Of a stretch of 64,000 nucleotides of DNA, positions 3,052-42,457 are shown piece after piece (position 1 is the stretch's first letter; every line of letters begins with the position of its first letter). The notes beneath the pieces were generated by a model. It made no database searches, had not been told where the DNA came from, and saw nothing but the letters and a program-made list of their open reading frames with translations. The stretch is from an uncultured bacterium (GTDB lineage: Bacteria > Bacteroidota > Ignavibacteria > Kapaibacteriales > UBA2268): contig OW818676.1 in assembly GCA_942493235.1 (NCBI GenBank), forward strand, positions 2,919,605 through 2,983,604, in the 5' to 3' direction. The position numbers and the translations under genes are program-made.

Positions 3052-5400
3052 TTACAATTCAACTATCGTTACTCCATCGCCGCCCTCGGTCAAATCGCCT
3101 AGCCTAAATTTAATTACAGACGGATGCTCCGACAAATACTCGTGAACGGCATGACGCAATGCACCGGTACCCTTGCCGTGGATAACAGTTAATATATTTA
3201 CATTGCTAACCAAAGCATCATTTATCAAATCGTCGATTTCTCTGATAGAGGCTTCGGCTCTCTTTCCGCGTAGGTCAAGACGTGTCTGAGCATCAAATTT
3301 CAAATAATTGGAATATTCTTTTTTTAGTTTATCTTTCTTTTTTGTTTTAATTAGTTGATTAGTCGGCATGCGGAATTTAACTCCGTTGAAATCGACTAAA
3401 GCCATTTTACCGTTATCGTCAATGAATATAACTGTACCGACAGAATCGGAATCTTCGATAGTAACTACATCACCTTCAGCTAATTTATCTGGTTCAGCTG
3501 GAATTGTGTTTTTATTGTCGTTCTTCTTAACTTTATTTTCAAGATTTTGTTTCTCGGTTTGGAATTCTTTTTTTACCTCGGCAACTGCTTTCTGCTCTTC
3601 ACGAATTTCACGAACAGTTTTTTCAATAAGAGCATTTGCAGAATTCAATACTTCAAGGGCTTCTTTATGAGCTGTATCAATTAGTTCTTTTTTCTTGAGT
3701 TTAATTTCTTTCAGCTTAGTTTCATATTCAATTCTAAGCTTTTCAGCTTTCATTTTCTCTTGAGCAGCAATTAACTTCAACTGCTCGGCTTCTTGTTTAT
3801 ATTGCTGAAGTAGCGAAATACTTTTTTCTAATTCGGAATGCCCCCCGCCTAAGAATTTATCAGCTCTTTCTAATACCAATCTATTAAGCCCAAGGCTCTT
3901 AGCCAGAGCAAAGGCATAGCTATTGCCGGGAATACCGGATAAGTATTTATAGGTTGGTTTTAGCTTTTTGTCATCAAATTCCAGCGACGCATTTTCGATT
4001 TCTTCGCGATTGAGAGAATATGTTTTCAGTGATGATTGATGCGTAGTAACAATAAAAAATGCGTTTAATGCAATAAATGTATCCAATATACCTGCCGCAA
4101 GAGCTGCACCTTCGTAAGGGTCTGTACCGGAGCAAATCTCATCAACTAATACAAGCGATTGAGCCGTACAGCACTCGACAATATTTTTAATTTGGATAAT
4201 TTGCGAGCTAAAAGTAGATAAATCGTGCTCAATTGATTGATTATCGCCTATAGATGAATAAATCATACGAAAATTGGTTTTACATACACCGAGGGGGAAT
4301 ATACCGCTCAGAGCCATTGCAATATTAATACCTATACTTTTCAGTGCTACGGTTTTACCACCGGCGTTTGGACCGGATATCAACTGACCGCGTTTTTTAT
4401 CGTTAAATTCTGCACTTAGTGGGATTACATTATTAATATTTTTCCCATGGCATAGTAAAGGATGGCGAATGTCTTTTAGATAAATTTCGTTTTCGTCGGA
4501 AATATTCGGTTTAATTCCACCAAAATCAAGAGCATATTTTGCCCTTGCCATTATTGAATCCAGATGGATAATTATATCATAAGACATTAATAATTGTCGT
4601 GCATCTTGCCCGATTTCCTGAGTCAGATTCTGAAGTATTTTGTATATTTCACGTTTTTCTTCGCTCATTAGCATTGAAATTTCGTTATTCATCTCAAATG
4701 TCTCACTCGGTTCTAAAAACACAGTCGAACCGGTCTGTGAGACGTTATGAATAATTCCGGGTACATGCCTCTTATGCTCGGCTTTAACAGGAATCACAAA
4801 ACGTCCGTCTCGAATAGAGATAAACTCTTCAGTAACCATATCGTCTTTGACTACATTTGCTAATATTTTTTCTAAACGCTGACGCAGTCTATGAGATTTT
4901 TCTATAATTTCTCTTCGGATTCGCATAAGCTCTCTTGAAGCAGAGTCCTTAATCTCGCCGTTTTCATCTATAGCGTCACTAATATGCTTTTCTAATAGTT
5001 TGTTCTCAAATAATGGCTCTACCCTATCCCATATTACTGGATATTTATCTCGCCTAAGCGAGAAATAAATTTTCAAGCTACGAGACTGATTCATGAGCTG
5101 ACACAATTTTAAAATCTCTCCGGAAGTAAGTACCGCATTAGTAACCAAGGATTTATGTAATTTTGTTCTTACATCGTCTATACCATCATAAGGGATTTCA
5201 TCATCGGCGACTAAAATGGAAACCATCTGCTCGATAAGTCCGTATTCATCATTTAGAAATTGATTATCATCGGTAGGCTCCAAACTTGTAATAATCTCTT
5301 TAGCTGATTCACTAAGTGCATATTTTGCGACATAATTAAGCAATGATTCAAATTCCAATTGCCTAAGAGCTAAATTCTGTAAAGTTTTTTCATCTGTCAT
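3052..5400 (-). CDS. mutS2: Endonuclease MutS2 / ribosome rescue factor RqcU
   Basis: Walker A ISGPNAGGKT, STFSS, DEICSGTDP, TTH motifs, a coiled coil, and a C-terminal Smr domain (LDLRG...IHGKGTGALR...GGDGVT). Confidence 0.95.
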   Translation of the reverse strand: MTDEKTLQNLALRQLEFESLLNYVAKYALSESAKEIITSLEPTDDNQFLNDEYGLIEQMVSILVADDEIPYDGIDDVRTKLHKSLVTNAVLTSGEILKLCQLMNQSRSLKIYFSLRRDKYPVIWDRVEPLFENKLLEKHISDAIDENGEIKDSASRELMRIRREIIEKSHRLRQRLEKILANVVKDDMVTEEFISIRDGRFVIPVKAEHKRHVPGIIHNVSQTGSTVFLEPSETFEMNNEISMLMSEEKREIYKILQNLTQEIGQDARQLLMSYDIIIHLDSIMARAKYALDFGGIKPNISDENEIYLKDIRHPLLCHGKNINNVIPLSAEFNDKKRGQLISGPNAGGKTVALKSIGINIAMALSGIFPLGVCKTNFRMIYSSIGDNQSIEHDLSTFSSQIIQIKNIVECCTAQSLVLVDEICSGTDPYEGAALAAGILDTFIALNAFFIVTTHQSSLKTYSLNREEIENASLEFDDKKLKPTYKYLSGIPGNSYAFALAKSLGLNRLVLERADKFLGGGHSELEKSISLLQQYKQEAEQLKLIAAQEKMKAEKLRIEYETKLKEIKLKKKELIDTAHKEALEVLNSANALIEKTVREIREEQKAVAEVKKEFQTEKQNLENKVKKNDNKNTIPAEPDKLAEGDVVTIEDSDSVGTVIFIDDNGKMALVDFNGVKFRMPTNQLIKTKKKDKLKKEYSNYLKFDAQTRLDLRGKRAEASIREIDDLINDALVSNVNILTVIHGKGTGALRHAVHEYLSEHPSVIKFRLGDLTEGGDGVTIVEL

Positions 5401-5527
5401 AAGTATATATAATTATTTAATAAATATTTTCAAATAAAATCAAGTAATTAATTAGACGAATGTAAGCTACTTTTTAATGTTTTTAAAATTCATTTTATAA
5501 CTATAAAATACAATATTCCTGCATATT

Positions 5528-5709
5528 GAGGGGTGGCATCGCGAAGCGATGACGGGGTGGGTTCTTTCTTCGGAATTGGGAAGTAGGAAATAGGAATTAG
5601 GAATTTGCTCGTCTCCTTACTACGCTCTGCGTAGTAAGGCTACTCTTCCAACAGCGTTAGATGTTGAACATCTGTAGAATATATTTTGCACTTCCTTTTT
5701 CTTTCTTTT
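5528..5709 (-). repeat. Single inverted copy of the mosaic palindromic repeat unit
   Basis: Reverse complement reads AAGAAAGAAAAAGGAAGTGC..TTCTAC..TTCAACATCTAACGCTGTTG..CCTTACTACGCAGAGCGTAGTAAGG..heptamers..CACCCCGTCATCGCTTCGCGATGCCACCCCTC, the same module order as ~8230-8424. Confidence 0.9.
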
Positions 5710-5762
5710 ACAAATCTATTTGTATTAGGAAATAATGAAGAAATTGATTAAGCGATATATAA

Positions 5763-5792
5763 ACAACCCACAGGTTTAACTACGGGTTGTTT
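5763..5792. repeat. Imperfect palindrome AAACAACCCACAGGTTTAACTACGGGTTGTTT
   Basis: AAACAACCC/GGGTTGTTT arms; resembles the palindrome at 59386 and lies just downstream of the DUF6249-like gene. Confidence 0.5.
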
Positions 5793-5835
5793 AATAAAAA
5801 GCAATATGGATGGTAACTTAGTAAGATTCATATTC

Positions 5836-6207
5836 TCAATCTTTTATATTCTTTAAAGCTCTTTTACCAATGAAATAGAATATTACTAAGCTTAAACCAA
5901 TACAAATAGTAATTGATGAACCCATAGCTACTGGACCTTCAAAATGGAGAACCCAGTGCAAATAATTAGCTACTAAAAATCCAACACCAAAACCGATTAA
6001 TATCATGCCGATTTTTAAAAATATAAGTAGATAGATTGACAGCTTGTTTTTTGTTGATTTAGCCGGAGAATTATATCCCCACACTAAATTTGGGTCTATA
6101 TCTTTGTCCATAATTGCCATTCTTTCTTTGTGCCTTGTGCTGATATTTAAATAAAATATTGCATAAATTGTCGCACATATCATCAGAAATACTAAAACGC
6201 CTTCCAT
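5836..6207 (-). CDS. DUF6249-like membrane protein
   Basis: N-terminal TM, RHKERMAIMDK motif, LKIGMILIGFGVGFL helices; divergent from an ECF sigma, the usual context of this family; GAGG RBS upstream. Confidence 0.7.
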   Translation of the reverse strand: MEGVLVFLMICATIYAIFYLNISTRHKERMAIMDKDIDPNLVWGYNSPAKSTKNKLSIYLLIFLKIGMILIGFGVGFLVANYLHWVLHFEGPVAMGSSITICIGLSLVIFYFIGKRALKNIKD

Positions 6208-6251
6208 ATTATTACCTCATAAATTTTAAATATTTTCTTTTCAAAAATAAT

Positions 6252-6278
6252 AACGCTATATTTTAATATAAAGTTGCA
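6252..6278 (-). promoter_or_regulatory. Putative ECF sigma promoter TGCAAC-N17-CGTT for the DUF6249-like gene
   Basis: Plus-strand AACG at 6252-6255 and GTTGCA at 6273-6278 with a 17-nt spacer; mirror image of 6301-6327. Confidence 0.6.
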
Positions 6279-6300
6279 AAAAATATTATTATATTTATAT

Positions 6301-6327
6301 TGCAACTATTTTATAATATTAAGCGTT
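6301..6327 (+). promoter_or_regulatory. Putative autoregulatory ECF promoter TGCAAC-N17-CGTT for the sigma gene
   Basis: TGCAAC at 6301-6306 and CGTT at 6324-6327, 11 nt before the ATG at 6339. Confidence 0.6.
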
Positions 6328-6338
6328 CTTATTGATAT

Positions 6339-6914
6339 ATGAAAGTATCAGAAGACATAGAAATAATTAAGCAAGTACTTAACGGTAATACAAGTGCTTA
6401 CAAAAGTATTATTGACAAGCATAAAAACTCTTGTTTTAATTTAGCATATAGAATTCTCGGTAATCGCCAAGATGCTGAGGAATGTACAGCCGATGCTTTT
6501 ATTAATGCTTTTAATGCTTTAAAAAATTATAATAATAATTTTAAATTTCGCTCTTGGCTAATGAAAATTACTTTTAACAGAGCAATTTCTATGAGAAGAA
6601 AAAAGAAAATCCCTATACAGCAAATCGAAAATGAAGACGAATATTCTTATATACAAGATTCAGTTGAGACTTACAGTCAAATATTTTCAGCAGATAAAAA
6701 GATGATAATTGACAATGCTCTAAGCTGTTTGGATAATGAATCGCGAGCTATAGTAAATCTCTTCTATTATGAAGAGTTTAGCTTAGAAGAAATTTCCGAT
6801 TTGGTCAATTCAAATATAAACACTGTAAAATCTAAACTATTTAGAGCAAGACAAAAAATGAAATCTGCAATTAATCGTTTCTATCAAAATGAAGAAAAAA
6901 ATATGGTGCTATAA
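6339..6914 (+). CDS. ECF RNA polymerase sigma-70 factor (RpoE/SigW-like)
   Basis: Region 2 DAEECTADAF..F.SWLMKITFNRAI and region 4 LFYYEEFSLEEISDLVNSNINTVKSKLFRARQKM. Confidence 0.93.
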   Translation: MKVSEDIEIIKQVLNGNTSAYKSIIDKHKNSCFNLAYRILGNRQDAEECTADAFINAFNALKNYNNNFKFRSWLMKITFNRAISMRRKKKIPIQQIENEDEYSYIQDSVETYSQIFSADKKMIIDNALSCLDNESRAIVNLFYYEEFSLEEISDLVNSNINTVKSKLFRARQKMKSAINRFYQNEEKNMVL

Positions 6915-7291
6915 TGAATGATAAAGATTTTAAGTTGTTATTTAAAGAGACTTCCGTAGAATTAGCTGATGATTTCTCGGATACTTTAATGCAAAAAATT
7001 AATTTGCAGCATAAGACTGCAAAATCCGTAATATTTACAAATATTAAAATTGTAAATATTATTCTATCTGCTATCATCAGTTTAGGGCTGATTATCTATT
7101 ATTTTCTTTATCAGGAAGTTAGCTCTGAATTGTCTCAATTTATATCAAAATTCACTAATAATATAAATATTGATTTTACAAAAATATTTACCTTAGACAT
7201 TTCTAAAACCATACTATATATTTGTCTTTTAGTACTTTTTGTTTTAGTATTTGATAAAATATTATTTCGTTTATTTAATCGCAAAAACTAA
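6914..7291 (+). CDS. Membrane protein, probable anti-sigma factor
   Basis: Overlaps the sigma stop codon (TAATG coupling); N-terminal DDFSDTLMQKI motif followed by two TM helices. Confidence 0.65.
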   Translation: MNDKDFKLLFKETSVELADDFSDTLMQKINLQHKTAKSVIFTNIKIVNIILSAIISLGLIIYYFLYQEVSSELSQFISKFTNNINIDFTKIFTLDISKTILYICLLVLFVLVFDKILFRLFNRKN

Positions 7292-7357
7292 ATATTGACT
7301 TCGTTCAGAATGACAAATTTTAGACTGTTTTATTCAAGCATATTAAAACTTTCATTT

Positions 7358-9020
7358 TACCAATATTCAACATCTAATGATGTTGGAACAGTAGCCTTAC
7401 TACGCAGAGCGTAGTAAGGAGACGAGCAAATTCCTAATTCCGAACATCAATCCCCATGAATTAAGAACCATCCCGTCATCGCTTCGCGATGCCACCCCTC
7501 CAATGGATGGGAATTTGAAGAAATAGCTACAAAACACCAGCTCTTATTATCCAAATATTCTCTTTAAGCCCTCTCCTTTGGAGAGGGTTTGTTTGAGGTT
7601 GAAAGATTTTCAGACACCAGCCACACTACGCAGAGCATAGTAAGGAGACGAGCAAATTCCTAATTCCGAACCTCTATTCCCATGAATTAAGAACCACCCC
7701 GTCATCGCTTCGCGATGCCACCCCTCCAATTGGAGGGGAATTTGAAGAATAGTCTATAAAGTGTTACCCATATCTTCAATATATAATCTTAAAGCCCTCC
7801 CCAAGGGGAGGGTTTGGGTGGGGTTGGAAGATATTCGCCACTAACCACACTAAGCAGAGCATAGTGCGAAGACGTACAAAAAAGCATTCGAAGTGAAGAA
7901 AGAAAAAGGGAGTGCCGCCTTTTTTTCTACCAATATTCAACATCTAACGCTGTTGTAAGAAAAGAATCGATTCCAGTTTCTACTTTCTATTTCCTAATTC
8001 CGAACCTCTATCCCCATGAATTAAGAACCACCCCGTCATCGCTTCGCGATGCCACCCCTCCATTTGAGGTGAATTTGAAGATTTGCTACTAAACAGTTAC
8101 CTCTATCATCAATATACAATCTTTAAGCCCTCTCCTTTGGAGAGGGTTTGGGTGAGGTTGGAAGATTTCAGACACCAGCCACACTACGCAGAGCATAGTG
8201 CGGAGACCTGCAAAAAACATTCGAAGCGAAGAAAGAAAAAGGGAGTGATAGCTTTTATTCTACCAATATTCAACAGCTAACGCTGTTGGAAGAGTAACCT
8301 TACTACGCAGAGCGTAGTAAGGAGACGAGCATATTTCTATTTCCTATTTCCCAATTCCCGAACCCCTATCCCCGAACCCCAAATTAAGAACCACCCCGTC
8401 ATCGCTTCGCGATGCCACCCCTCCATTGGAGTGGAATTTGAAGATTTGCTAATAAACTGTTACCTCTATCATCAATATAAAATCTTTAAGCCCTCTCCTT
8501 TGGAGAGGGTTTGGGTGAGGTTGAAAGATTTTCAGACACCAGCCGCACTACTCAGAGCGTAGTATGGAGACCTGCAAAAAAACATTCGAAGAGAAGAAAG
8601 AAAAAGGGAGTGCTAACTTTTTTTCTACCAATATTCAACAGCTAACACTGTTGGAAGAAAAGAATTGATTCCAGTTTCTATTTCCTATTTCCCAATTCCC
8701 GAACCCCTATCCCCGAACCCCAAATTAAGAACCACCCCGTCATCGCTTTGCGATGCCACCCCTCCATTTGAGGTGAATTTGAAGATTTGCTACTAAACAG
8801 TTACCTCTATCATCAATATACAATCTTTAAGCCCTCTCCTTTGGAGAGGGTTTGGGTGAGGTTGAAAGATTTTCAGACACCAGCCACACTACGCAGAGCG
8901 TAGTAAGGAGACGTAAAAAAAAACATTCGAAGAGAAGAAAAAAAAGGGAGTGCTAACTTTTTTCTACCAATATTCAACAGCTAACGCTGTTGTAAGAAAA
9001 GAATCGATTCCAGTTTCTAC
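7358..9020 (+). repeat. Tandem mosaic array of palindromic REP-like modules, five units (BIME-like)
   Basis: ACCA(C/T)CCCGTCATCGCTT(C/T)GCGATGCCACCCCTCC starts at 7467, 7693, 8027, 8390 and 8731 (periods 226, 334, 363, 341). The CCCTCTCC-TTT-GGAGAGGG hairpin or a variant is at 7569, 7795, 8128, 8491 and 8832. Other recurrent modules are CAACAGC-TAAC-GCTGTTG, CTACGC-AGA-GCGTAG and TTCCTAT/TTCCCAA heptamers. Confidence 0.95.
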
Positions 9021-9079
9021 TTCTTACTTTCAACTTAATAAACATTATAACTTTCAACTTTATAACTTTATAAACTGAA

Positions 9080-9526
9080 TCAGGCAAGCTTTTCTTTTAC
9101 AATTCTTTGAACCATATTGCCATCAGCTTTTCCAGATAATTGCTTCATAGCAGGACCCATTACTTTACCCAAATCTTTCATACCCTCTGCCCCGACTTCG
9201 TTTATAAAATTAGAAATAAAAATGTTTACTTCATCTTCGGTCATTTGTTTAGGCAGGAATTCTTCGATAATAGCGAGTTCTTTGCTTTCTTTATCCGACA
9301 GTTCGGTTCTTCCTGCATTTTTGTACATTTCAATTGCATCTTTTCTCTTTTTTGCAGCCGCAATCAACATTTTCTGCTCGTCTTGCTCGTTCATATCTCT
9401 GCCTACACCGCTTGTTTTGAATTCAAGAATGGCAGCACGAATAGAACGCATAGTTTCTAAACGAAGTTTATCGCCACTTTTCATAGCGGTTTTCATTTCT
9501 TCAGTAATTTTCAGCTCTAAGTTCAT
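9080..9526 (-). CDS. GatB/YqeY domain protein
   Basis: MKTAMKSGDK.RLET.R.I.AAI, KRKDAIEMY..AGR.EL..KE..E..IIEEFLPKQM, MKDLGKVMG, GKADG. Confidence 0.92.
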   Translation of the reverse strand: MNLELKITEEMKTAMKSGDKLRLETMRSIRAAILEFKTSGVGRDMNEQDEQKMLIAAAKKRKDAIEMYKNAGRTELSDKESKELAIIEEFLPKQMTEDEVNIFISNFINEVGAEGMKDLGKVMGPAMKQLSGKADGNMVQRIVKEKLA

Positions 9527-9603
9527 TTTATTTTCCCTAATGTTTTTTACAAATATTATACATGTTACAAAAATAAGAATTTTAATACTTTAAGCCAAAT
9601 ATT

Positions 9604-11469
9604 TCAATTTAAAGTATGATTTAAATTCTTTGGTAATGTAACAGTAAATATTGTTCCATAGTTAACTTCACTTGTTACTGTAATATTTCCATTTAGTGTC
9701 TCAATAAGTCTTTTAGCAATTGTCAAGCCTAATCCGGTACCGGAAATACTACCTACATTATTACTGCGATGAAAGGGTTCAAATAAATTACCAATATCTT
9801 GCTGAGGAATACCGATTCCATTATCTTCGACAGAGAATTGAACTTCATCAATTGTGGAATCAATTGAAACAATTATTTCCGAGCCATAATCGGAATATTT
9901 TGATGCGTTCGATAATAGATTAGACAAAATATGGTTGATAATAATTGGGTCGCTATTGATAAATATATTGTTTGTTTGATAATTTAATTTGATATTGTGC
10001 TTTCCCATATCTACATATTTAAGATTATCAATAGATTTACGCATGAAGTCCACCAAGTCAAATTCTGTATATCGGGTGCTGACGTTACCGGTATCGCTTT
10101 TCCCCAAAATCAAAACATCTTCAAGCAGTGCAGTCATCAGCTTGACTGAATCTTGAATCCTCGATAATTGAGTACTAAACATATCGCTTTCGCCGTTTAT
10201 TTTACACTTCTCTAAAATATAAGTAGAAGATAAAATAACAGTCAAAGGTGTACGATATTCATGAGAGACCATCGAAACAAATCTGGTCTTTAATTCATTA
10301 ATCTCCCTTTCACTTTGCAGTGCGAGCTCAAGATTTTCCTGTGCAATTATCAATTCGGTCGATATTCGATTTTTTTCATCCATTTCAGTTCTTAACTCAA
10401 TAAGAGCATCTTCTAATTGAGCAGTTCTGTCTTCAACTCTGTCTTCAAGCTCAATATTGGCATCAACGAGTTTTTCCTGCTGGTCTAAAATTATTTGCTT
10501 AGACAGCTTAATATTTTGCAACATAGTTCTAAATGAGTTTGATAATACTCCGATTTCATCATTAGAATTCACATTAATTCTTACATCGTAATTCCCTTCA
10601 GCTATTTTCAATGTAGTATTATTTAATTCGATAATTGGTTTTGAAATTGCTTTAGCAATAATAAAAGACCAAATTACAGAGCATATTACAGTAAGTGATA
10701 TAATTATGATTAGTATAAATTGTGTATTATCAGCTATTTTTGATTTTTCGGCTACTAATTCCTCGCTATTATCTTTAATTACTAATTCTAATTTTTCGAA
10801 TTGATTTTCCATTGAATTCAATATTTTAAATACATTTACTAATTTATAAAATCCCTCTAAATAGTAATCCGAGTATTTTAATATATTACTTTTTTCTCTT
10901 GAACTCATTCCGCTATTAAGTAATATTTTTTTAAACTGCGAAATAGAGTTTTCTACTTTAGTAATATACTTAGAAGACTTTCGCATAATAAAATCTTTTT
11001 CACTCCTGCGGGCTTGAAGTATATTGATTATTAAATCCTTAGAGCGTGATAGATACACCATGTTTTCTATATTATGAACTCCGTTTCTGAATTCACCTTC
11101 TATACCGTTATTTTCGTCTAAGCCACGGTATTTCATAGTATCAACATATTGCTTGAATAATTTAACGTAGTTATCTTTATTTGAATTTAGGGAATATAAT
11201 TGACTACTTTCTAATTCGTCTATATAAGCATCAATTTTATTAATTTTATCATAAAATTTCTTTGCGATATTTAAATCTCTGGTTTTTGAAAATTCAATTC
11301 TGAACTGAGTGGCTGTATTAATGGAGGCTTCGATTATTCTTAGCTTATCCCTCTGATTTAACATATCAATAGTATAATAGGACAAAAAAACGATTGCTAC
11401 TAAAACCAATTCTAAGACCGAAGCCATAAGTATAATCTTGGCACGTAAAGACTTGCTAAAATAATTCAT
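9604..11469 (-). CDS. Membrane sensor histidine kinase (periplasmic sensor, HAMP, HisKA, HATPase)
   Basis: Two TM segments, HAMP (DEIGVLSNSF), H-box SHEYRTPL, NLLSNASKYS, DNGIGIP, GTGLGL. Confidence 0.92.
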   Translation of the reverse strand: MNYFSKSLRAKIILMASVLELVLVAIVFLSYYTIDMLNQRDKLRIIEASINTATQFRIEFSKTRDLNIAKKFYDKINKIDAYIDELESSQLYSLNSNKDNYVKLFKQYVDTMKYRGLDENNGIEGEFRNGVHNIENMVYLSRSKDLIINILQARRSEKDFIMRKSSKYITKVENSISQFKKILLNSGMSSREKSNILKYSDYYLEGFYKLVNVFKILNSMENQFEKLELVIKDNSEELVAEKSKIADNTQFILIIIISLTVICSVIWSFIIAKAISKPIIELNNTTLKIAEGNYDVRINVNSNDEIGVLSNSFRTMLQNIKLSKQIILDQQEKLVDANIELEDRVEDRTAQLEDALIELRTEMDEKNRISTELIIAQENLELALQSEREINELKTRFVSMVSHEYRTPLTVILSSTYILEKCKINGESDMFSTQLSRIQDSVKLMTALLEDVLILGKSDTGNVSTRYTEFDLVDFMRKSIDNLKYVDMGKHNIKLNYQTNNIFINSDPIIINHILSNLLSNASKYSDYGSEIIVSIDSTIDEVQFSVEDNGIGIPQQDIGNLFEPFHRSNNVGSISGTGLGLTIAKRLIETLNGNITVTSEVNYGTIFTVTLPKNLNHTLN

Positions 11470-11670
11470 ATTTGCTCTTCTCTATTTAACACACATTAAG
11501 GAATGCAATTTTACAATTTTAAGTTAAGTTTAGAATAAATTTCAAGTTAATTAGGAGTTAATATGGATTATAATCAAAATATAAAAGTCTTTTATAAGTG
11601 ATAATACACTTGTCTGTAGGTGCTGAAGTATTAGGTAGATAACAAACTATCGATATGAAGTAATTTTTGG

Positions 11671-11975
11671 TTCTTCGCTATTATGTGTGGGTAAGCAAAT
11701 AAAGAAATCTTTCTTACAACAGCGATAGCTGTTGAACATCGGTAATAAACATTGTTTAGTCCCCACACTCTTTTTTCTCTTTTGGTCGTTAAAAGAAGAG
11801 AGTGATAGTGGTGTATCTCATTATATTACAGATATTTAACTCCTAACGGAGTTAAGATATAATATCATTGATGTTTATCAAATAATTTATCCAAAACCAA
11901 TATTTGATATATTAAGGTTTTGATAATACTAATAACAAATATTTGCTAACCCACTTAAAATAGCAAAGCCCCAAT
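11671..11975 (+). repeat. ~300 bp dispersed non-coding element, copy 1
   Basis: Near-identical to 42648-42953 (direct) and similar to 24011-24312 (inverted); contains CAACAGC-N4-GCTGTTG and TTTAACTCC-TAAC-GGAGTTAA hairpins. Confidence 0.9.
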
Positions 11976-12023
11976 TTATTTAATTTACTGTTTGTACTTT
12001 AAATTTTCAATTTTTGAAATTTA

Positions 12024-12095: not shown

Positions 12096-14498
12096 CTACA
12101 TTTCTAATTCTATACCAAAGAAAAAATATCTCTCTTGACCGGGAAAGAATTCTTTGCCTTCGCCGGAACTTGCGTATAATTTATTGAATATATTACTTAA
12201 CTGACCGTTGAGTTTAACACCTTTTAATCCCAATATATCTTTGAATTTGTATGATAAATCCAAATCAACTATGAAATAGCTGTCAACTACGTTATCGTCG
12301 TACCAGCCGTCCCAGCCGGCAAGTAAATTTCTTTTTAAGTCCGCATTATTATTTATCATTTCGCCATAATTATCAGTATAGAATTCACCTACATATTTAC
12401 CGGTTAAACCGAAAAACAAATCCTCCATATAGAAATTAACACCGAAATTCACCATAAAATCAGGAAATCCGGCAATTTTGTTATCTTTCAGTGAAATTTT
12501 AGCTCCGTCATCGAGACTAACATCGTAATCAATAAATTTATTCTGACTATATGTAGTATTTGCCCAAACGGTAAATTTTGAACTTTCGTCAATTATAAAA
12601 TTATACTTAGTTTCAAGTTCTATTCCATAGTGACGAGAGCGTGAAGCATTCTCATCTACCGGATTGCCCCATATATCAACTTTACCTGTTTTTACTAATT
12701 CATCATTATAGTCCATGTAATACAAAGTAGCAGAAAACATTAGGTCATTCGCTTTGTAGTTTAGTCCATATTCGATATCAATCATTTTTTCAGGTTTTGC
12801 TATCGGAGAATCAAAATCATATCCCCAAGTAGTATCATTAATTTGAACTGTTTTGAATTTTGGAATAGCTCCGGAATAAGCATCGTCGGCAGCATATAGA
12901 TTTCTCATTCTTGGTTCGCGAGAGGTATAAGCTAAGAAAAAATAGGTACTAATATTTTCATCTGGCTTGAAGTTCATTCCTACTCTTGGATTTAGGAAGG
13001 TGTAATTAACACTGAATAGTTCATCTTTACCTCCTACATATTTCCCTTCACTATTTAGGTAATATCTATAATTATTGCCTGCTTTTTCGTCTGCAATAGC
13101 AAATCTATGGTTTACTAACTGTAAATCCGCAAAAAGCATAATTTCTTCAATCAAATACAAATTATCTTTAATAAATAATGAAATAACATCTCTTTTGCCG
13201 TTATTTGAATAGAATTTATAATCATAGTCAAAATTCTCCGGCATTTGCTCAGCAAATAGGACTTTTCCGTAATGATTTGAACGGTGAATTCGGAGCTCAC
13301 CACCGATAGTAAACTCATTCTCGTCTGTTTTAAAAATCAGTCTTGGAATCCAGCCACCATGTTTATTTTCAACATAAGCTCTCATAAATGTATTTTTTAG
13401 CTTATTATCTTCGCTAATAGGATAATCGTTAGTAGCAATTATATTAAAATTGTCATCAGCCCAAGCGGCATCTCCATCGAAATAGCCGTCGCCTTGATAA
13501 TAGAATAAAGATGATTTAAAATACAAATTATCAGTAATTTTCCAATCATTTAAAACCTCAAAATGCGGCTGAGAAAATTCTTCGATTTCCTGTTTTTTTC
13601 TATCGGTATACCAGCTTAGTTGTTTTCCGGTAGAATCATAAGCCCAACCGTAAGCGTAGTTTTTCTTTCTTAGAGATTTATCTGTAATATAGCTTTTAGG
13701 CAAACCGTTATAAGCGAGCCCATCGCTTACCGGACCGCCAAAAATATTAATCTGAGTAGAGAAATCTTCTTGGAAATTAGCGGCACTCAAGAAAAACGAA
13801 TTAAGATTTGTCCAAGAATTATCTCTGTAGCCGTCGGATTGAATTTTTGACATTTTTACATAGAATGCCCAATTATCAATTAGACCAGATGATACTTCTA
13901 TCGACATTTTACTTGTATTAGCCTTATAAATAGAATTATCTCCGCCAAATTCTTGAACGCCCATTCCTGCGAACATTTTCACGCCCTTATAATTAGCATA
14001 GTTAGCTGTAGTAAGGTTAATTGAGCCACCGATAGACGGCGAACCATAATTGCTAAGCCCAGCACCGCGTTGAACTTGAATACTCTCAGTAGAACCGGCT
14101 AAATCAGGCATATCAATCCAATATACTTGATGATCTTCAGGGTCATTCTGAGGGATTCCATTTACCAAAACGGCAATACGTCTTTGGTCAAATCCTCGCA
14201 TAGTAAGTGATGAATAGCCTATGCCATTCCCGTTTTGAGAACTAAAAATAACACTTGGCATAGTCGAAAGCAATTTTGGCATATCGGCAGTAATATACCT
14301 CTCTCTAATCTCGGATTTTGAAATTTCTGCAAACGGTGCAGGAGTCTTACCGAAAATTGCACGAGTTGATGTAACGGTAACACTTGGGGTAACATATACC
14401 TTGGCTGAATCATACTTTGTCTCTAAAGCGTCTGTAGCTTTCAGCGGTATATAGCATAGAATAATCAAAGCTGTGATTTTTAGAAATAATTTGTACAT
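12096..14498 (-). CDS. TonB-dependent receptor, probably for thiamine or a precursor
   Basis: Signal peptide, VTVTSTR TonB-box region, plug (MRGFDQRRIAVLVNGIPQND, IQVQRGAG...GGSINL), terminal beta-strand FFFGIELEM; preceded by a TPP riboswitch. Confidence 0.9.
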   Translation of the reverse strand: MYKLFLKITALIILCYIPLKATDALETKYDSAKVYVTPSVTVTSTRAIFGKTPAPFAEISKSEIRERYITADMPKLLSTMPSVIFSSQNGNGIGYSSLTMRGFDQRRIAVLVNGIPQNDPEDHQVYWIDMPDLAGSTESIQVQRGAGLSNYGSPSIGGSINLTTANYANYKGVKMFAGMGVQEFGGDNSIYKANTSKMSIEVSSGLIDNWAFYVKMSKIQSDGYRDNSWTNLNSFFLSAANFQEDFSTQINIFGGPVSDGLAYNGLPKSYITDKSLRKKNYAYGWAYDSTGKQLSWYTDRKKQEIEEFSQPHFEVLNDWKITDNLYFKSSLFYYQGDGYFDGDAAWADDNFNIIATNDYPISEDNKLKNTFMRAYVENKHGGWIPRLIFKTDENEFTIGGELRIHRSNHYGKVLFAEQMPENFDYDYKFYSNNGKRDVISLFIKDNLYLIEEIMLFADLQLVNHRFAIADEKAGNNYRYYLNSEGKYVGGKDELFSVNYTFLNPRVGMNFKPDENISTYFFLAYTSREPRMRNLYAADDAYSGAIPKFKTVQINDTTWGYDFDSPIAKPEKMIDIEYGLNYKANDLMFSATLYYMDYNDELVKTGKVDIWGNPVDENASRSRHYGIELETKYNFIIDESSKFTVWANTTYSQNKFIDYDVSLDDGAKISLKDNKIAGFPDFMVNFGVNFYMEDLFFGLTGKYVGEFYTDNYGEMINNNADLKRNLLAGWDGWYDDNVVDSYFIVDLDLSYKFKDILGLKGVKLNGQLSNIFNKLYASSGEGKEFFPGQERYFFFGIELEM

Positions 14499-14597
14499 TT
14501 CTTCTCTCCAAAAAAATATTAATAAATATATTTTCCGAAAAAGAAGGTTGTTTTATCGACTGAGGAACCAACGAGAATAGGTAGGGCACAAAGCCTG

Positions 14598-14684
14598 CCG
14601 TAATCCCTACGCAGGTATTAGCCTGGTCAGGTTCAAGGAGTCTAATCTCAGCCGCACCCATTACAGGGCGAGCACCTCCTACGG
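14598..14684 (-). ncRNA. TPP riboswitch
   Basis: Minus strand reads CCGTAGGAGGTGC...GCTGAGA..ACTCCTTGAACCTGACCAGGCTAATACCTGCGTAGGGATTACGG, with the conserved CTGAGA and AACCTGA..AGG.TAAT.CCTGCGTAGGGA blocks and a CCGTA/TACGG P1 stem. Confidence 0.93.
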
Positions 14685-14763
14685 ACATACAAAATTAAGT
14701 ATAAGATAGATAAAAACAAAATTATATTATAAATATATTTAAATATTACTCGTGTAAATATTG

Positions 14764-15795
14764 TTAAACCTTTGGAGCTCTATATCTTACTCCCCAAAAT
14801 TTGAATTTAGTTAATGAAGTATATACAACTAATCTCTCGAAATATTTAAATCTCAAAAGGTAATGAAAAACTCTATAAAATAAGAACAGCAGAACCATAA
14901 ATACTGCCGATTCATAGAAAAAGCTTAAAATACTATTTTGAATACTATTTGATATATCACCTAATTGACTATAAACAAAGCCGAAAATAACGGACATAAT
15001 TAAAAATGTAATTGCAGCTATAAATCCATGAGCTGTCTCTATTGCCTTTCGCGGGCAGTAACTCATGCACCTCATACAGCTCTCGCAGTGATATGTCCAG
15101 TACGGTCTTTTGTCAACATATTTAATTGCATTAACAGGACAATTCTTCATACATATTCCGCAATTATCGCAATCTTTAGAAGCGTAATAAGTTTTAGATA
15201 GGATAAATCTACCTACAAAATAGTATCCGAGCGAAATAGGAGCTATAGCTAAATCCAGAATTATTTCGCGAGTAAATTTATAATTAGTCTTTTCATTAAT
15301 AATTTCTTCTGCAATATGATTTACTTTGTTTTTTATCTTTTCATTGATAAAATTCACTGCGTTAGCACGAAGTCCCGGATGAATGGATATCCAATTAGAA
15401 GGCAAATCAACCGAATAAAGCGACTGAATTTTATACCCCTTTAATTTCAAAACAGAAGCTGCGAAATATAAGGTAATTCCGCTTAATCCTGGAGTAACCC
15501 AATTGCCTATTTTCATACCGGCACGTGTATTCATAATTACTACTTTATTATCTGATTTCGGAAAACCGGCTAAAAAATTAAGCATTATAGGCGGAAAATT
15601 AAATCCGTGCGTTGGCGAAATAAATATTATGGTTTCATTTTTCTCGGGAGTGGGAATATTATTTCTGTCAATTATGGCAATATTGAATAATTTGCAAATT
15701 ATTCCGCTTTCGTTTGCCCTATCGGCAAGCCACAAAGCCGTATTTTTTGAATTACCGGTTCCCGTAAAATAATATATAGTGAATATTTTCTGCAT
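14764..15795 (-). CDS. EFR1-family protein (flavodoxin-like domain plus 2x[4Fe-4S] ferredoxin)
   Basis: YYFTGTGNS flavodoxin loop; CDNCGICMKNCP and CESCMRCMSYCP cluster motifs. Confidence 0.88.
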   Translation of the reverse strand: MQKIFTIYYFTGTGNSKNTALWLADRANESGIICKLFNIAIIDRNNIPTPEKNETIIFISPTHGFNFPPIMLNFLAGFPKSDNKVVIMNTRAGMKIGNWVTPGLSGITLYFAASVLKLKGYKIQSLYSVDLPSNWISIHPGLRANAVNFINEKIKNKVNHIAEEIINEKTNYKFTREIILDLAIAPISLGYYFVGRFILSKTYYASKDCDNCGICMKNCPVNAIKYVDKRPYWTYHCESCMRCMSYCPRKAIETAHGFIAAITFLIMSVIFGFVYSQLGDISNSIQNSILSFFYESAVFMVLLFLFYRVFHYLLRFKYFERLVVYTSLTKFKFWGVRYRAPKV

Positions 15796-15882
15796 ACAAT
15801 TCTCTAATTAAAATATAAGCAATACAAATTTATATTATTTCTATTAATATGAAAAATCATTTTTTTGAAAGGCTATAAACCT

Positions 15883-16041
15883 AAGTTGAACGTCGAAAAA
15901 GGATTATTGAATTAAATTATATAAGTTAAAGGTCGAAAAAGGATTATTGAATAAAATTATATAAGTTAAAGGTCGAAAAAGGATTATTGAATAAAATTGT
16001 ATAAGTTAAAGGACGAAAAAGGATAATTGAATAAAATTATA
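15883..16041 (+). repeat. 40-bp tandem repeat, about 4 copies
   Basis: Unit GGATTATTGAATAAAATTATATAAGTTAAAGGTCGAAAAA at 15901, 15941 and 15981, with partial copies at 15883-15900 and 16021-16041; no spacers. Confidence 0.92.
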
Positions 16042-16108: not shown

Positions 16109-16807
16109 ATGGCACAAAAGAAGTTTTGTATAATCGGATTAGGATATTTCGGGCTAAATTTATCATTAATTTTAAGTCGAGACGGAGCGGAAGTATTAGC
16201 TATTGATAGTAATATGGAAAGAGTTGATATAGTCAGCGAAAAAGTTACTCACTCAGTGTGTATGGATGCTACAGATGAAAGGGCACTACGCAGTATGGGG
16301 CTTAAAGAAATGGATGCAGTAATTGTTGCTATCGGAGAAGGATTCCAGAGCTCAATAATGACAACTGCCCTATTGCAGGAAATCGGTGTCAAAAGAATAT
16401 TTAACCGAGTAACATCTCCAATACATGAACGCTTATTGAAGTTGATGGGTATTCATGACTTGTTAGTGCCTGAAGCAGAAGCTGCTTCTCATCTTGCTTC
16501 AAGATTAATGCTCGAAGGAGTAATTGGCTCATTTGAATTATCTGAAGATTACGGCGTTTTTGAAATTCAAACTCCAAGTTTCTTTATAGGTAAATCAGTT
16601 ATGGAATCCAATCTGAGGCAGACCTATAATTTGAACTTAGTTACTATCAAAAGATTGAAGAAAAAAGGCGGGTTAAAAACATTAGGCGACAGAGATGAAA
16701 TTACCGTAGTCGGAGTTCCTTCACCAAATCTTACTATAATCGAAAATGATATATTGGTTGTATTCGGTAAAGAAAAAGATGTTAAATTGTTATTAGAACA
16801 GAAATAA
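16109..16807 (+). CDS. TrkA/KtrA-family potassium uptake regulatory (RCK) subunit
   Basis: IIGLGYFG NAD-binding fold, AID, DATDE.AL, VIVAIG, RCK_C tail D.LVVFG. Confidence 0.92.
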   Translation: MAQKKFCIIGLGYFGLNLSLILSRDGAEVLAIDSNMERVDIVSEKVTHSVCMDATDERALRSMGLKEMDAVIVAIGEGFQSSIMTTALLQEIGVKRIFNRVTSPIHERLLKLMGIHDLLVPEAEAASHLASRLMLEGVIGSFELSEDYGVFEIQTPSFFIGKSVMESNLRQTYNLNLVTIKRLKKKGGLKTLGDRDEITVVGVPSPNLTIIENDILVVFGKEKDVKLLLEQK

Positions 16808-20055: not shown

Positions 20056-20064
20056 TTTTTACTC

Positions 20065-20377
20065 CCCACTCTGATACGTGTGGTTGATTCAATTACGAAC
20101 TTCAAATTACCAATTACGATTTACATAAGATATGTCTCTAATTCCCTATCCCCACTCCCGCCTCTGAAGCGAGGGGTTGATGGCAGAGATGTATTTTCTA
20201 TTCCCCACGCTAAAAAATGTGGTTGAAAGATTTTCGGTTACCAGCCATTAGCCATACTACGCAGAGCGTAGTAAGGAGGGTTGCATATTCCTATTTCCTA
20301 TTTCCAATTTCCAACTCCTACTTTATAACTTCATAACTTTACAAACTTTATAACTTTCAACTTCCCACTTCATAACT
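20065..20377. repeat. Cluster of palindromic modules and heptamers between convergent genes
   Basis: CCCCAC..GTGGTTGA variants, TGAAAGATTTTC..ACCAGCCA, TACTACGCAGAGCGTAGTAAGG, TTCCTAT runs and ATAACTT runs, shared with the 7358-9020 array. Confidence 0.75.
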
Positions 20378-21184
20378 TTATAAATCAATTTCTAAAATAA
20401 CCGGACAGTGGTCAGAACCCATTACATCGGGTCTTTGAGTACAATTAATCAGCTTTGGTTTTAAGTTTTGCGAAATCAAATGATAATCAATTCTCCAGCC
20501 TATATTTTTATCTCTTGCTCCACTTCGCTGGCTCCACCAAGTATAGTTATTAGGTTCGGTATTGACTTGACGGAAGGCATCGACAAATCCAAGCTCGAGC
20601 ATTTGGTCGAGCTTTTCTCGCTCTTCAAGTAAAAATCCCGAAGTATTGATATTATCTTTGGGTCTTGCCAAATCAATTTCTTTGTGAGCTGTATTGTAAT
20701 CGCCACAAATAATTAATCTATGGTCTTTAGGATAATTCTTTGTGATATAGCCGAATAGATTATCATAGAACTCGATTTTGTATTGAAGTCTTTCGTTATC
20801 CGTATATCCCTTAGGGAAATAAATATTGAAAAGTGAAAAATTAGGATAAGTAACTTCTAATACTCTGCCCTCCATATCAAATCTTTCCTCATTAAGAGAA
20901 TCATTTACTACTTTTGGCTCAATCTTACTGAAGACGGCAACACCCGAATAGCCCTTTTTGCCTTTGGAATAATTATAGTATGAATAATAGCCATTGGGAG
21001 TTCTCAATTCCTCCAATATCTGTGCCGGCTCGGCTTTGATTTCCTGCAAACAGAGTATATCCGGATTTTCATCTTCGATAAACTTAAACAATTTATTTTC
21101 TTTGGTAACTTTGTCAAATCTCTTACTTGAGTTCTGACCGGTAACAGCTCTATAACCGTTTATATTCCAAGTGATTATCTTCAT
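20378..21184 (-). CDS. xth: Exodeoxyribonuclease III / AP endonuclease
   Basis: KIITWNING, DILCLQEIK, GYSGVA, EGR, IYFP, GDYNTAH, GF.DAFR, YTWWS, WRIDY, GSDHCP. Confidence 0.96.
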   Translation of the reverse strand: MKIITWNINGYRAVTGQNSSKRFDKVTKENKLFKFIEDENPDILCLQEIKAEPAQILEELRTPNGYYSYYNYSKGKKGYSGVAVFSKIEPKVVNDSLNEERFDMEGRVLEVTYPNFSLFNIYFPKGYTDNERLQYKIEFYDNLFGYITKNYPKDHRLIICGDYNTAHKEIDLARPKDNINTSGFLLEEREKLDQMLELGFVDAFRQVNTEPNNYTWWSQRSGARDKNIGWRIDYHLISQNLKPKLINCTQRPDVMGSDHCPVILEIDL

Positions 21185-23884: not shown

Positions 23885-24010
23885 TTGTTACCTATTCTGA
23901 TAATTGTTAAATCGTTAACTATTGAATTAAAGAATACTTTTTTGACGTATATTGGCTATTTTTAGTCTATTTTCGATAAAATTAGACTAAAGAGTTTTGA
24001 ATCAGTCCTT

Positions 24011-24312
24011 TGGGTCTTCACTATTTTAAATGGATTAGCAAATAATTGTAATTACTTTAAAGAAATTCCTTATATATCAAATATTGATTTTTGATATATA
24101 ATTGGATAAACATATTTGATTTTAAATTTTAACTCCGATAGGAGTTAAACATCGCTAACATAATGAGATACACCACCACCACCCACTTGATTTAACAACA
24201 AAGAGAGAAGAAAGAGTGCGGGGGGCTAAACAATGCTTATTACCGATGTTCAACAGCTAACGCTGTTGTAAGATATTTTTCTTTATTTGCTTACCCACTC
24301 ATAATATCGATG
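24011..24312 (-). repeat. ~300 bp dispersed element, copy 2 (inverted, more diverged)
   Basis: Reverse complement matches 11671-11975 and 42648-42953; TTAACTCC-GATA-GGAGTTAA and TTCAACAGCTAACGCTGTTGTAAG are present. Confidence 0.85.
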
Positions 24313-24315
24313 AAT

Positions 24316-24432
24316 ATAGAAAATGATATTATTAGGTATTTGGAAATAAAAACATAATTAAAGAGTTTTGAAATAGTTTTATTATGTTAAATAGAAAATG
24401 ATATTATTAGGTATTTGGAAATAAAAACATAA
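24316..24432 (+). repeat. Exact 42-bp direct repeat at 75-bp spacing
   Basis: ATAGAAAATGATATTATTAGGTATTTGGAAATAAAAACATAA at 24316-24357 and 24391-24432. Confidence 0.88.
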
Positions 24433-24485
24433 AAATGTAATTTTGAAAGCTAATTATTGGACAATAAAATTGAAATAAGATACAC

Positions 24486-39066: not shown

Positions 39067-39079
39067 TAAGAATAGTTAG

Positions 39080-40096: not shown

Positions 40097-40107
40097 ATTT
40101 TACTCCA

Positions 40108-42423: not shown

Positions 42424-42457
42424 AATTACAAATATAATACATTTTAAAACAGAATGC

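Follow-up and report, generated by a model that had tools for sequence, protein, structure and literature searches.

A tandem mosaic of small hairpin- and triplex-type repeats beside a sigma factor cassette between yqeY and mutS2 in a Kapaibacteria-like bacterium

What is a 1.7 kb block of short palindromic repeats, and how did it come to lie beside an extracytoplasmic function (ECF) sigma factor gene, between yqeY and mutS2? The block was found in a 64 kb stretch of contig OW818676.1 (the window), which is ordinary chromosome of an Ignavibacteriota/Kapaibacteria-like bacterium; the best MutS2 identity to species representatives is 63%. It occupies positions 7354-9079 (+) and consists of five tandem composite units followed by a terminal octamer tail. 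A first reading of the sequence (the original prediction) had placed a five-unit mosaic of palindromic modules here. It had pointed to mosaics of repetitive extragenic palindromic (REP) sequences, which are mobilized by REP-associated tyrosine transposases (RAYT), and had suggested that the array is possibly transcribed as structured RNA and is a candidate for an undescribed element. The array is noncoding repetitive DNA, real in sequence, and it holds at least four families of small nonautonomous repeats (P, E, R, and H) together with heptamer and purine tracts. Our preferred reading, which we regard as reasonably probable, is that it is passive, recombination-amplified DNA rich in non-B-DNA motifs and seeded by small mobile elements, in the manner of bacterial interspersed mosaic elements (BIMEs) or Neisseria intergenic mosaic elements (NIMEs).

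Anatomy and growth of the array

A repeat-family search returns five copies with start-to-start distances of 226, 333, 363, and 341 nt, and Tandem Repeats Finder (TRF) scores the 226 nt period at 646, in agreement with the predicted tandem array. The GC content of the array is 0.40-0.47, against 0.23-0.30 in its flanks. Modules were mapped by pattern search and alignment, and none of the hairpin-module patterns turned up in any of 100 dinucleotide-shuffled windows. The core of a unit is ∼226 nt long and has six parts, namely a heptamer tract (S), a CGTC-tagged mini-hairpin (P), an AT-rich linker (L), an intrastrand triplex motif (E), a leader (G), and a palindrome (R). No connector separates cores 1 and 2; K-H-T stands between cores 2 and 3, between 4 and 5, and after 5, and K-H-R between cores 3 and 4, K being a purine-rich tract and H a further hairpin. 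An H-R pair stands ahead of unit 1 and an octamer tail (O) reaches the yqeY stop codon, so that the modules follow one another as H-R-[S-P-L-E-G-R]-[S-P-L-E-G-R]-K-H-T-[S-P-L-E-G-R]-K-H-R-[S-P-L-E-G-R]-K-H-T-[S-P-L-E-G-R]-K-H-T-O. The block contains 17 hairpins plus purine/pyrimidine tracts, all three canonical G-quadruplex (G4) motifs of the window, and no open reading frame (ORF) longer than 65 aa. A tRNA/tmRNA scan gave no match, and neither did the whole unit when compared with plasmids and phages by blastn.

Most of what had been said of the anatomy is borne out. The hairpin CATCGC-TTC-GCGATG inside CCACCCCGTC..GCCACCCCTCC is present in five copies, CCCTCTCC-TTT-GGAGAGGG in four copies plus one variant, CTACGC-AGA-GCGTAG in seven, CAACAGC-TAAC-GCTGTTG in five, and the purine-rich linker in four; the heptamer runs are recovered by TRF (period 7 at 8332-8380 and 8678-8721), and the units do differ in length by whole modules, as the connectors show. 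The array is a long, multifamily mosaic of small palindromic repeats, as described, and is BIME-like in a loose sense. Its position was given correctly, but the bounds of 7358-9020 were too narrow, the octamer tail abutting the yqeY stop codon. The polarized pattern survives as an age gradient, whereas the near identity claimed for units 3-5 does not: cores 3-5 are mutually 92-96% identical, and cores 1 and 2 are 81-86% identical to all others.

Each core lies between R or R-like direct repeats of 25-45 nt, an arrangement from which unequal recombination or slippage produces tandem duplications. The units are also mosaics of each other: unit 5 has S and G-R parts that match unit 4 exactly (74 and 64 nt) and a P-L-E center that matches unit 3 exactly (115 nt), and this patchwork is direct evidence of exchange between units. 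We propose that the cluster was amplified in tandem, growth having come from slipped replication or unequal recombination at the direct repeats, with gene conversion afterward. The yqeY-proximal units 3-5 would be the youngest, and the oldest would be those that adjoin the sigma factor cassette and the right arm of an inverted repeat discussed below, an arrangement that fits outward growth from that arm. Hairpins, triplex motifs, G4 motifs, and purine/pyrimidine tracts are known to stall replication, and their high density in the array, with the triplex motifs placed head-to-head, may have aided the process.

An array of this kind might also be suspected of being an assembly artifact, a collapsed or expanded repeat, since tandem repeats are error-prone in short-read assemblies and the contigs of a relative break near the locus. 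However, the units are distinguishable (they differ by 4-19% and are joined by three junction types), the longest exact repeat inside the array is only 115 nt, and the proteins of the window are recorded on a source contig of 4,233,112 nt. For these reasons we find an artifact scarcely credible.

Triplex-type and hairpin modules and their known counterparts

Module E, located at 8125-8160 (+) in unit 3 and at 7566-7601, 7792-7827, 8488-8523, and 8829-8864 in the others, reads AAGCCCTCTCC-TTT-GGAGAGGG-TTT-GGGTGAGG-TT, the third block of the core consensus being given as GGGTGAGGTT. A pyrimidine block (CCCTCTCC) is followed by its Watson-Crick purine partner (GGAGAGGG) and by a third block (GGGTGAGG) that, laid antiparallel, gives only G.G-C, A.A-T, and T.A-T triplets. 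G/C-rich class II intrastrand triplex-type motifs (ITxF) consist of pyrimidine, Watson-Crick purine, and reverse-Hoogsteen blocks with stems of 6-15 nt and loops of 1-6 nt (PMC4666352), and the copies in units 2-5, with eight perfect triplets and loops of 3/3 nt (2/3 in the unit 2 variant), fall within this definition. In unit 1 (7566-7601) the third strand has decayed and carries two mismatches. The unit 2 variant (7792-7827; CCCTCCCC/GGGGAGGG/GGGTGGGG) is altered at one position in all three blocks, T-A-A to C-G-G, such that the triplet is preserved, which is a single, anecdotal instance of three-way covariation. Perfect Y-R-R patterns of at least seven triplets give nine overlapping matches in the window, all of them in the array, and none in 30 shuffles.

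This type of motif was described as BoxC, then as PIT, and then as TMECO (Holder et al. 2015, PMC4666352). The block structures correspond and their words are nearly alike, CCCTCTCC-N3-GGAGAGGG-N3-GGGTGAGG in E and CCCTCNCCC-N3-6-GGGNGAGGG-N3-GGGNGAGGG in TMECO (PMC4666352), and E is likewise a multicopy sequence that is conserved across distant genomes, occurs in inverted pairs, and sits in locally rearranged DNA. It differs from TMECO in having stems of 8 rather than 9 triplets, in its hosts (Bacteroidota and Ignavibacteriota-like bacteria as opposed to Proteobacteria), in being embedded in a tandemly amplified composite, and in the loop of its partner P, 20 nt against 1-6 nt for ITxF. The strict TMECO pattern with 9 nt stems has 0 matches in the window, and relaxation to 8 nt stems matches four E copies. 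As a sequence pattern, E is a member of the triplex-motif class by the general ITxF definition and lies outside the TMECO pattern.

The E 33-mer occurs exactly at 14 Bacteroidota loci (Mucilaginibacter, Chitinophagales, and others), with identity that extends to 35-41 nt; by our own arithmetic, the chance matches expected for a 33-mer in the collection searched number ∼1e-8. The exact E 31-mer had 0 matches in viral contigs. Seven of the 14 loci have E in frame within ORFs of 278-1134 aa, e.g., leuS-like genes, where its translation, depending on strand and frame, is ALSFGEGLGEV, NLTQTLSKGEG, or SPKPSPKERA. In this it resembles the Rickettsia palindromic elements and intragenic REPs, with the difference that no module copy lies inside a gene in our window. 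Each unit of the array contains a head-to-head pair of triplex-type patterns, formed by minus-strand P and plus-strand E; the P/E head-to-head arrangement is also found in Mucilaginibacter, with unrelated linkers.

Module P, located at 7468-7521 (+) in unit 1 and at 7694-7748, 8028-8081, 8391-8444, and 8732-8785 in units 2-5, reads CCACCCC-GTC-[ATCGC TTC GCGAT]-GCCACCCCTCC-loop-GGAGGGG-AAT. Two CCACCCC repeats thus enclose a CGTC-tagged 5 bp hairpin, and a second (CCCCTCC/GGAGGGG) hairpin comes after them. All six P copies (five in the array and one at 5528-5560) read CGTC-ATCGC-TTC-GCGAT-GCCA, and no other CGTC-tagged hairpin occurs in the window. On the minus strand the module becomes CCCCTCC-loop-GGAGGGG-[hairpin]-GGGGTGG, a Y-R-(hairpin)-R triplex-type pattern; its blocks are fully complementary only in unit 2 (CCCCTCC / GGAGGGG / GGGGTGG), and its second loop, which holds the hairpin, measures 20 nt against the ITxF limit of 6 nt, which puts minus-strand P outside the triplex definition. 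The P 34-mer is 97.5% conserved even when the old units are compared, in which the neighboring linker is 64.5% identical. Because the outer purine arm, GGAGGGG, has decayed in four of the five units while the 34-mer has been kept, the 34-mer itself is probably the constrained object, its simplest role being that of a site recognized on single-stranded nucleic acid.

The P 34-mer is found exactly at four further loci, in three Acidobacteriota metagenome-assembled genomes (MAGs) and one Alphaproteobacteria MAG; identity extends to 36-39 nt in the Acidobacteriota copies, and the Alphaproteobacteria match covers 49 nt at 94%. The exact P 28-mer had 0 matches in viral contigs. A degenerate search (CCACCCCGTC-N13-GCCACCCCTCC), which imposed no pairing within N13, returned 13 copies in 10 IMG/VR viral contigs with GC contents of 0.35-0.60, where they sit among phage genes (Baseplate_J, DUF3164, and DUF4054). 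The internal stems of these family members vary together (ATCGC/GCGAT, AGCCG/CGGCT, AACAC/GTGTT, TTGG/CCAA, and AGTG/CACT), with stems of 4-6 bp and loops of 3-5 nt outside the window. Across 19 family sequences, 94.7% of cells in the stem pair vs 56.6% in shuffles (0/500), double changes occur in all five pairs, and the covariation score is 0.791 vs 0.159 (0/500). Slid controls pair at most at 44%, and the flanks are invariant. Covariation is found in the P stem but not in the H hairpin, where nine copies in the window show one compensatory change, like shuffles (186/500).

One 9.7 kb IMG/VR contig (L127; 349-1118 and 6457-6490) carries four P copies, two of which are inverted and bracket a 161-aa ORF without a Pfam match. 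In seven P loci the GGAGGGG arm lies 17-44 nt ahead of a co-oriented start codon. A general role of P in supplying or sequestering Shine-Dalgarno sequences was rejected: 10 copies point the same way as the gene that follows and 7 the opposite way, and the copies in the array precede no gene.

Two described groups of hairpins resemble P. Members of the CGTC-tagged REP superfamily have a stem of 8-9 bp with A-T at the first two positions and a loop of 4-5 nt, and occur mostly as head-to-head dimers (Di Nocera 2013, PMC3733652). The Neisseria NTS/dRS3 sites are targets of the single-strand nuclease SsnA (Chenal 2025, PMC11893778), and the Ssn system has a single-domain cd10448 GIY-YIG gene that is typically flanked by the motif (PMC11893778). 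P shares with these groups the unpaired 5′ CGTC tag, the A-T-first stem, the short loop, and the CCA tail (GCCA in P, as in the CGTC-tagged REPs; PMC3733652). It is also oriented by conserved nonpalindromic flanks, crosses phyla, clusters near particular genes, and has no adjacent transposase. However, its 5 bp stem and 3 nt loop, like the stems and loops of its family, lie outside the published dimensions (PMC3733652), and it is flanked by the CCACCCC direct repeat and the CCCCTCC/GGAGGGG hairpin. The five array copies are in direct orientation, the sole inverted partner (5528-5560) being 1.9 kb away, an arrangement other than a head-to-head dimer. The SRM pattern HGTCWYN(0-2)YYVSBRHN(0-5)WNVSBRGN(0-2)RNCYNB (PMC11893778) had 0 matches on either strand of the window, and the dRS3 pattern had no match in the window.

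These resemblances bear on the idea that P and/or R are sites of a single-stranded DNA (ssDNA) enzyme encoded elsewhere, which would be a GIY-YIG nuclease of the Ssn type or an HUH transposase of the RAYT type. On that view the array could be a cluster of sites comparable to Neisseria NTS/dRS3 that modulates recombination of incoming or replicating ssDNA around the sigma cassette. The layout of P, with its tag, A-T-first stem, short loop, and (G)CCA tail, speaks for such an enzyme (PMC3733652; PMC11893778), as do the invariant flanks and covarying stem of the 19 members, the pattern expected of a protein-recognized ssDNA hairpin, and the fact that NTS sites also cluster around particular genes. 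On the other hand, the SRM pattern is absent from the window, the stem and loop are shorter than the 8-9 bp and 4-5 nt of the CGTC families, and the array copies are all direct where CGTC REPs are mostly head-to-head dimers. No candidate gene was found either. The 45 ORFs of at least 120 aa in the window, and its intergenic ORFs, include no Y1/HUH transposase, RAYT, DUF559, or other transposase gene; no Y1 (PF01797) gene flanked by array repeats is present among the window ORFs; the only GIY-YIG gene in the window is UvrC, with no single-domain cd10448 gene and no ssn gene; and neither a small GIY-YIG nor a Y1 transposase gene stands beside P in the window or at 14 other P loci. We therefore hold an enzyme-driven array to be possible but improbable. 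Mobilization by a RAYT, which the original prediction cited for REP/BIME mosaics, lacks both the transposase, in the window, and the tag, the GTAG of the CTACGC palindrome being within the stem instead of forming an unpaired REP tag; the suggested search for a RAYT/IS200-type or DUF559 gene accompanied by the same modules found none in the window.

The R palindrome (CCTTACTACGC-AGA-GCGTAGTAAGG, 11 bp stem) is located at 8298-8322 (+), and a pattern search places R at 7399-7423, 7625-7649, 7849-7873, 8183-8207, 8302-8326, 8547-8571, and 8888-8912 (+). The R copies that follow E have the leader GGTTGAAAGATTTTCAGACACCAGCCAC ahead of them and a stem of only 7 bp. In R the GTAG is paired to CTAC, unlike the unpaired GTAG/GGAG of RAYT-associated REPs. 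Enterobacterial BIMEs are composed of inverted, alternating GTAG-tagged REPs with conserved linkers and have a cognate RAYT. NIMEs of Neisseria consist of RS units separated by dRS3 and bounded by inverted dRS3 pairs, and they are linked to recombination and variation of neighboring genes. The array resembles BIMEs as an intergenic mosaic of several palindromic repeat types with conserved linkers and tandem composite units, placed between convergent genes; it differs in that modules of one type are all direct, only P (minus-strand type) and E (plus-strand type) facing each other, in the paired GTAG and the lack of a RAYT in the window, and in its more complex unit (6-9 modules, 226-363 nt) and longer block (1.7 kb). 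With NIMEs it shares the form of a long intergenic array of longer repeat segments, with a CGTC-type hairpin returning wherever one unit meets the next, whereas its sequences and host phylum differ and the dRS3 pattern is absent. Because orientations do not alternate, the GTAG is paired, no RAYT is present in the window, and there is no dRS3 pattern, the array works like a BIME or NIME and is a member of neither.

The H hairpin (CCAATATTCAACAGC-TAAC-GCTGTTG) lies at 8263-8288 (+), with other copies at 7360-7385, 7930-7955, 8628-8653, and 8967-8992. An R 26-mer had 0 matches in metagenome or viral contigs, and an H 20-mer had a single match in 596 Gb of genome contigs, in a Planctomycetota MAG and at chance level; R and H appear to be lineage-specific. 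The K tract (8583-8613 (+), CATTCGAAGAGAAGAAAGAAAAAGGGAGTGC; others at 7885-7915, 8218-8248, and 8924-8954) is followed by a T-run and then by H. The S tract (8327-8390 (+); others at ∼7424-7467, 7650-7693, 7983-8027, and 8681-8731) is built of the pyrimidine-rich heptamers TATTTCC, CAATTCC, and CGAACCC, and in units 4 and 5 its minus strand contains GGGGTTCGGGGATAGGGGTTCGGG, a canonical G4 motif. The O tail (9020-9079 (+)) is an AT-rich run of the octamer AACTTTAT that ends exactly at the yqeY stop codon.

With E, P, and H described, the proposal of structured RNA can be weighed. It holds that the array is transcribed from the ECF operon as structured noncoding RNAs that are processed to unit-length products. 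In its favor, array and upstream operon point the same way and no clear terminator separates them, the predicted hairpins are stable, and the P hairpin covaries across its family. Yet Rfam gave no match at E ≤ 1 in 6000-11000 and none in the array in a scan of the whole window, so the suggested Infernal comparison found nothing in the array; the single compensatory change in nine H copies is no better than shuffles (186/500); and the outer P arm has decayed in four of five units. In addition, E is kept as a purine-motif triplex pattern, and such triplexes do not form in RNA (PMC4666352). Elsewhere, P and E stand in both orientations to genes (10 P copies co-oriented and 7 opposite), and E also lies within coding sequences. 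An RNA array is, in our estimation, very unlikely.

The suggestion of an undescribed element likewise divides. E falls in the BoxC/PIT/TM class, and P resembles the CGTC REP and NTS hairpins; the particular P family and the architecture of the array are undescribed in the literature that we found, and a search with the P words returned nothing relevant. The P family is a candidate mini-element, described in outline but uncharacterized, and is the least explained part of the array.

A split gene pair, a sigma cassette, and dispersed modules

The order yqeY-mutS2, with both genes on one strand, is found in 23 relatives. In 20 of them no more than 128 nt separate the genes, and in the remaining three the gap holds one or two genes co-directional with yqeY. 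Here, mutS2 (3052-5400 (-)), which lies directly downstream of yqeY in relatives, is 3,679 nt away from yqeY (9080-9526 (-), convergent with the array). The pair is split by a lineage-specific insertion, and the 3.7 kb interval holds, beginning from yqeY, the array, an anti-sigma-like ORF, the ECF sigma factor gene, a DUF6249 gene, and a K-H-R-S-P composite. The three genes form a cassette at 5836-7291, made up of DUF6249 (5836-6207 (-)), the ECF sigma factor (6339-6914 (+)), and the anti-sigma-like ORF (6914-7291 (+)); the latter two are on the strand opposite yqeY, and DUF6249 is co-directional with it. This DUF6249(-)/sigma(+)/125-131-aa ORF(+) trio is kept as a unit in relatives, with sigma identities of 60-65% and an anti-sigma-like ORF 35% identical to its positional equivalent, and it stands there in other neighborhoods (abhydrolase/PAS-kinase or flgK-flgL) with no modules beside it. 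None of the modules was found around yqeY and mutS2 of relatives in ∼95 loci (∼0.95 Mb). Look-ups of the exact YqeY and anti-sigma-like protein sequences returned no recorded entry.

The array forms one arm of an inverted repeat of ∼175 nt, the composite H-R-S-P, that encloses the cassette. The arms match at 5593-5680/7354-7441 (88 nt, 92%) and at 5528-5560/7468-7500 (33 nt, 97%), the left arm belonging to a single dispersed K-H-R-S-P composite at 5528-5700 (-), directly upstream of mutS2. In the relative with 87% YqeY identity, an ordinary hairpin and then a 98-aa ORF, which is on the opposite strand, stand between yqeY and mutS2, with no modules in the assembled stretches. In the relative with 86% YqeY identity, yqeY is followed by a 350 nt spacer and then by DUF6249 on the strand opposite yqeY; two independent assemblies stop 125 nt past DUF6249. 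The yqeY-mutS2 junction is a hot spot in the clade, and the cassette has moved there and is present in both orientations. Recombination between flanking inverted repeats would give exactly these two orientations, and we infer that the cassette was flipped in this way.

The spacer of the 86% relative (L115 5655-5880 / L116 670-900) contains an H-like, perfect 13 bp hairpin (GATGTCCAACATC-TCCGA-GATGTTGGACATC) and a TM-like CCCCC..GGGGGG-TA-GGGGTG, and both assemblies of this relative end at the palindrome CAACCCTAAGCTTAAGCTTGGGGTTG.

Insertion of the cassette would have made a new convergent junction, and the array might be needed there as a boundary element, that is, a terminator, insulator, or 3′-end stabilizer between the convergent ECF sigma operon (+) and yqeY (-). 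This function is compatible with our preferred reading of passive, amplified DNA. The array does sit between convergent genes, and REPs are mostly located between convergent or unidirectional ORFs (PMC3733652). No terminator-like site is present from the anti-sigma stop (7291) to the first E hairpin (7571-7587), which is itself flagged as terminator-like, and the R palindrome is flagged as terminator-like on the minus strand; the predicted folds of single units are well below those of shuffled sequences in energy (z = -3.2 to -3.4). However, one hairpin would be enough, which makes five units of 226-363 nt superfluous, and relatives manage with a single ordinary hairpin. PIT/TM elements have no terminator or promoter activity in E. 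coli (PMC4666352), and our terminator scan gave only 6 sites vs 2.9 expected, a sigma-70 promoter/terminator scan being uninformative for the host phylum. We consider a boundary function as the explanation of the array unlikely. The array as a set of promoters for the adjacent sigma factor was rejected, the ECF-type promoter pattern GAAC-N15-18-CGT having no match in 5400-9100.

The modules are also dispersed in the genome, with further copies at 5528-5700 (-), 11710 (-), 20249-20383 (+), 24249 (+), and 42687 (-). A second composite at 20060-20383 (+) comprises diverged C-rich hairpins, the leader GGTTGAAAGATTTTC..ACCAGCCA, the R palindrome, a heptamer tract, and an octamer (ACTTTATA) tail, its leader-R-S-O part spanning 20200-20383. 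The O tail, which recurs here at 20320-20383, abuts the stop codon of a convergent exo/endonuclease/phosphatase gene (20378-21184 (-)), just as the array tail does at yqeY.

A dispersed element of ∼310 nt, whose 3′ end shares 77-85% identity with H, is present in three copies at 11650-12000 (-), 24000-24300 (+), and 42650-42960 (-) with 81% mean column identity over the aligned stretches, flanks included. Its three hairpins are TTAACTCC-GTTA-GGAGTTAA, a pyrimidine/purine stem, and H at the 3′ end. Homology of K to this element was rejected at an identity of only 42-50%, the H part alone being shared. The copies lie ∼190-280 nt upstream of, and co-oriented with, genes for a histidine kinase, an unknown 289-aa protein, and a BlaI-like repressor, and no Rfam family matches the element, which may be a small RNA gene, a 5′ leader, or a miniature inverted-repeat transposable element that carries a promoter. 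Short tandem duplications separate two of the copies from their downstream genes: one of 75 nt x 1.9 (24316-24458) begins ∼15 nt after the copy at 24000-24300, and one of 20 nt x 2.1 (42458-42499) lies at the gene start below the copy at 42650-42960. The repressor gene (42052-42459) heads a group at 37364-42459 (-) with three paralogous genes, two of which encode a BlaR1 peptidase-M56 domain plus TonB_C and the third (39080-40096) TonB_C only.

Two further features of the window stand apart from the array. A tandem repeat of 40 nt x 4 (15882-16041; perfect register, 94% matches, unit TAAGTTAAAGGTCGAAAAAGGATTATTGAATAAAATTATA) is intergenic between a ferredoxin/flavodoxin-like gene (14764-15795 (-)) and a trkA-like gene (16109-16807 (+)). 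The sole solid Rfam match in the window is a thiamine pyrophosphate (TPP) riboswitch at 14586-14689 (-) (RF00059, 64.8 bits, E 1.9e-10), upstream of a TonB-dependent receptor gene (12096-14498 (-)).

Origin of the array and meaning of the locus

Taken as passive, amplified repeat DNA, the array would have been seeded by P and E, which may have arrived as tiny, horizontally spreading elements; P is found in phage contigs, and E has inserted in frame into genes elsewhere. The inverted repeats could flip the cassette, and the P 34-mer would be kept under constraint, to judge from its conservation pattern, probably because a protein recognizes it on single-stranded DNA. For the array as a whole a dedicated cellular function is improbable; at most, it would separate two convergent transcription units.

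Several points weigh against this account. The amplification and the inversion are read from one sequence and partial contigs of relatives with at most 87% YqeY identity, and the far side of the locus in the 86% relative is unassembled, so an independent insertion is possible in place of an inversion. The P 34-mer is strongly conserved and the unit 2 copy of E carries a three-way compensatory change, which shows that at least these modules are constrained and are not junk. An array-wide function as terminator, insulator, or protein-binding array is possible. No enzyme that would spread P, E, R, or H was found in the 64 kb covered, out of a 4.2 Mb genome. A bolder proposal, which we regard as doubtful, would make P an undescribed mobile mini-element family of ∼55-60 nt, defined by a covarying CGTC hairpin stem, invariant CCACCCC words, and the CCCCTCC/GGAGGGG hairpin, carried between phyla by phages and recognized as ssDNA by an Ssn-like or new enzyme; the array and the composite at 5528-5700 would then form an invertible, expandable locus that switches the orientation and read-through context of the ECF sigma cassette.

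BoxC-type triplex motifs and CGTC-type hairpins are known mainly from Proteobacteria and Cyanobacteria. The present locus extends both repeat classes to an Ignavibacteriota/Kapaibacteria-like genome, where they are combined with local repeats in a 1.7 kb mosaic. Within this one locus, a conserved gene pair has been split, a sigma cassette has been relocated and apparently flipped, and an array has expanded. TM loci are more rearranged than control loci, and TM motifs have been tied to local genomic instability (PMC4666352), a published link that the locus supports. Which enzyme spreads CGTC-type repeats is a question only partly answered in the literature, and the locus alone gives no answer to it; the P family, with identical 34-39-mers in three phyla and copies in phages, offers a clean substrate for finding that enzyme.

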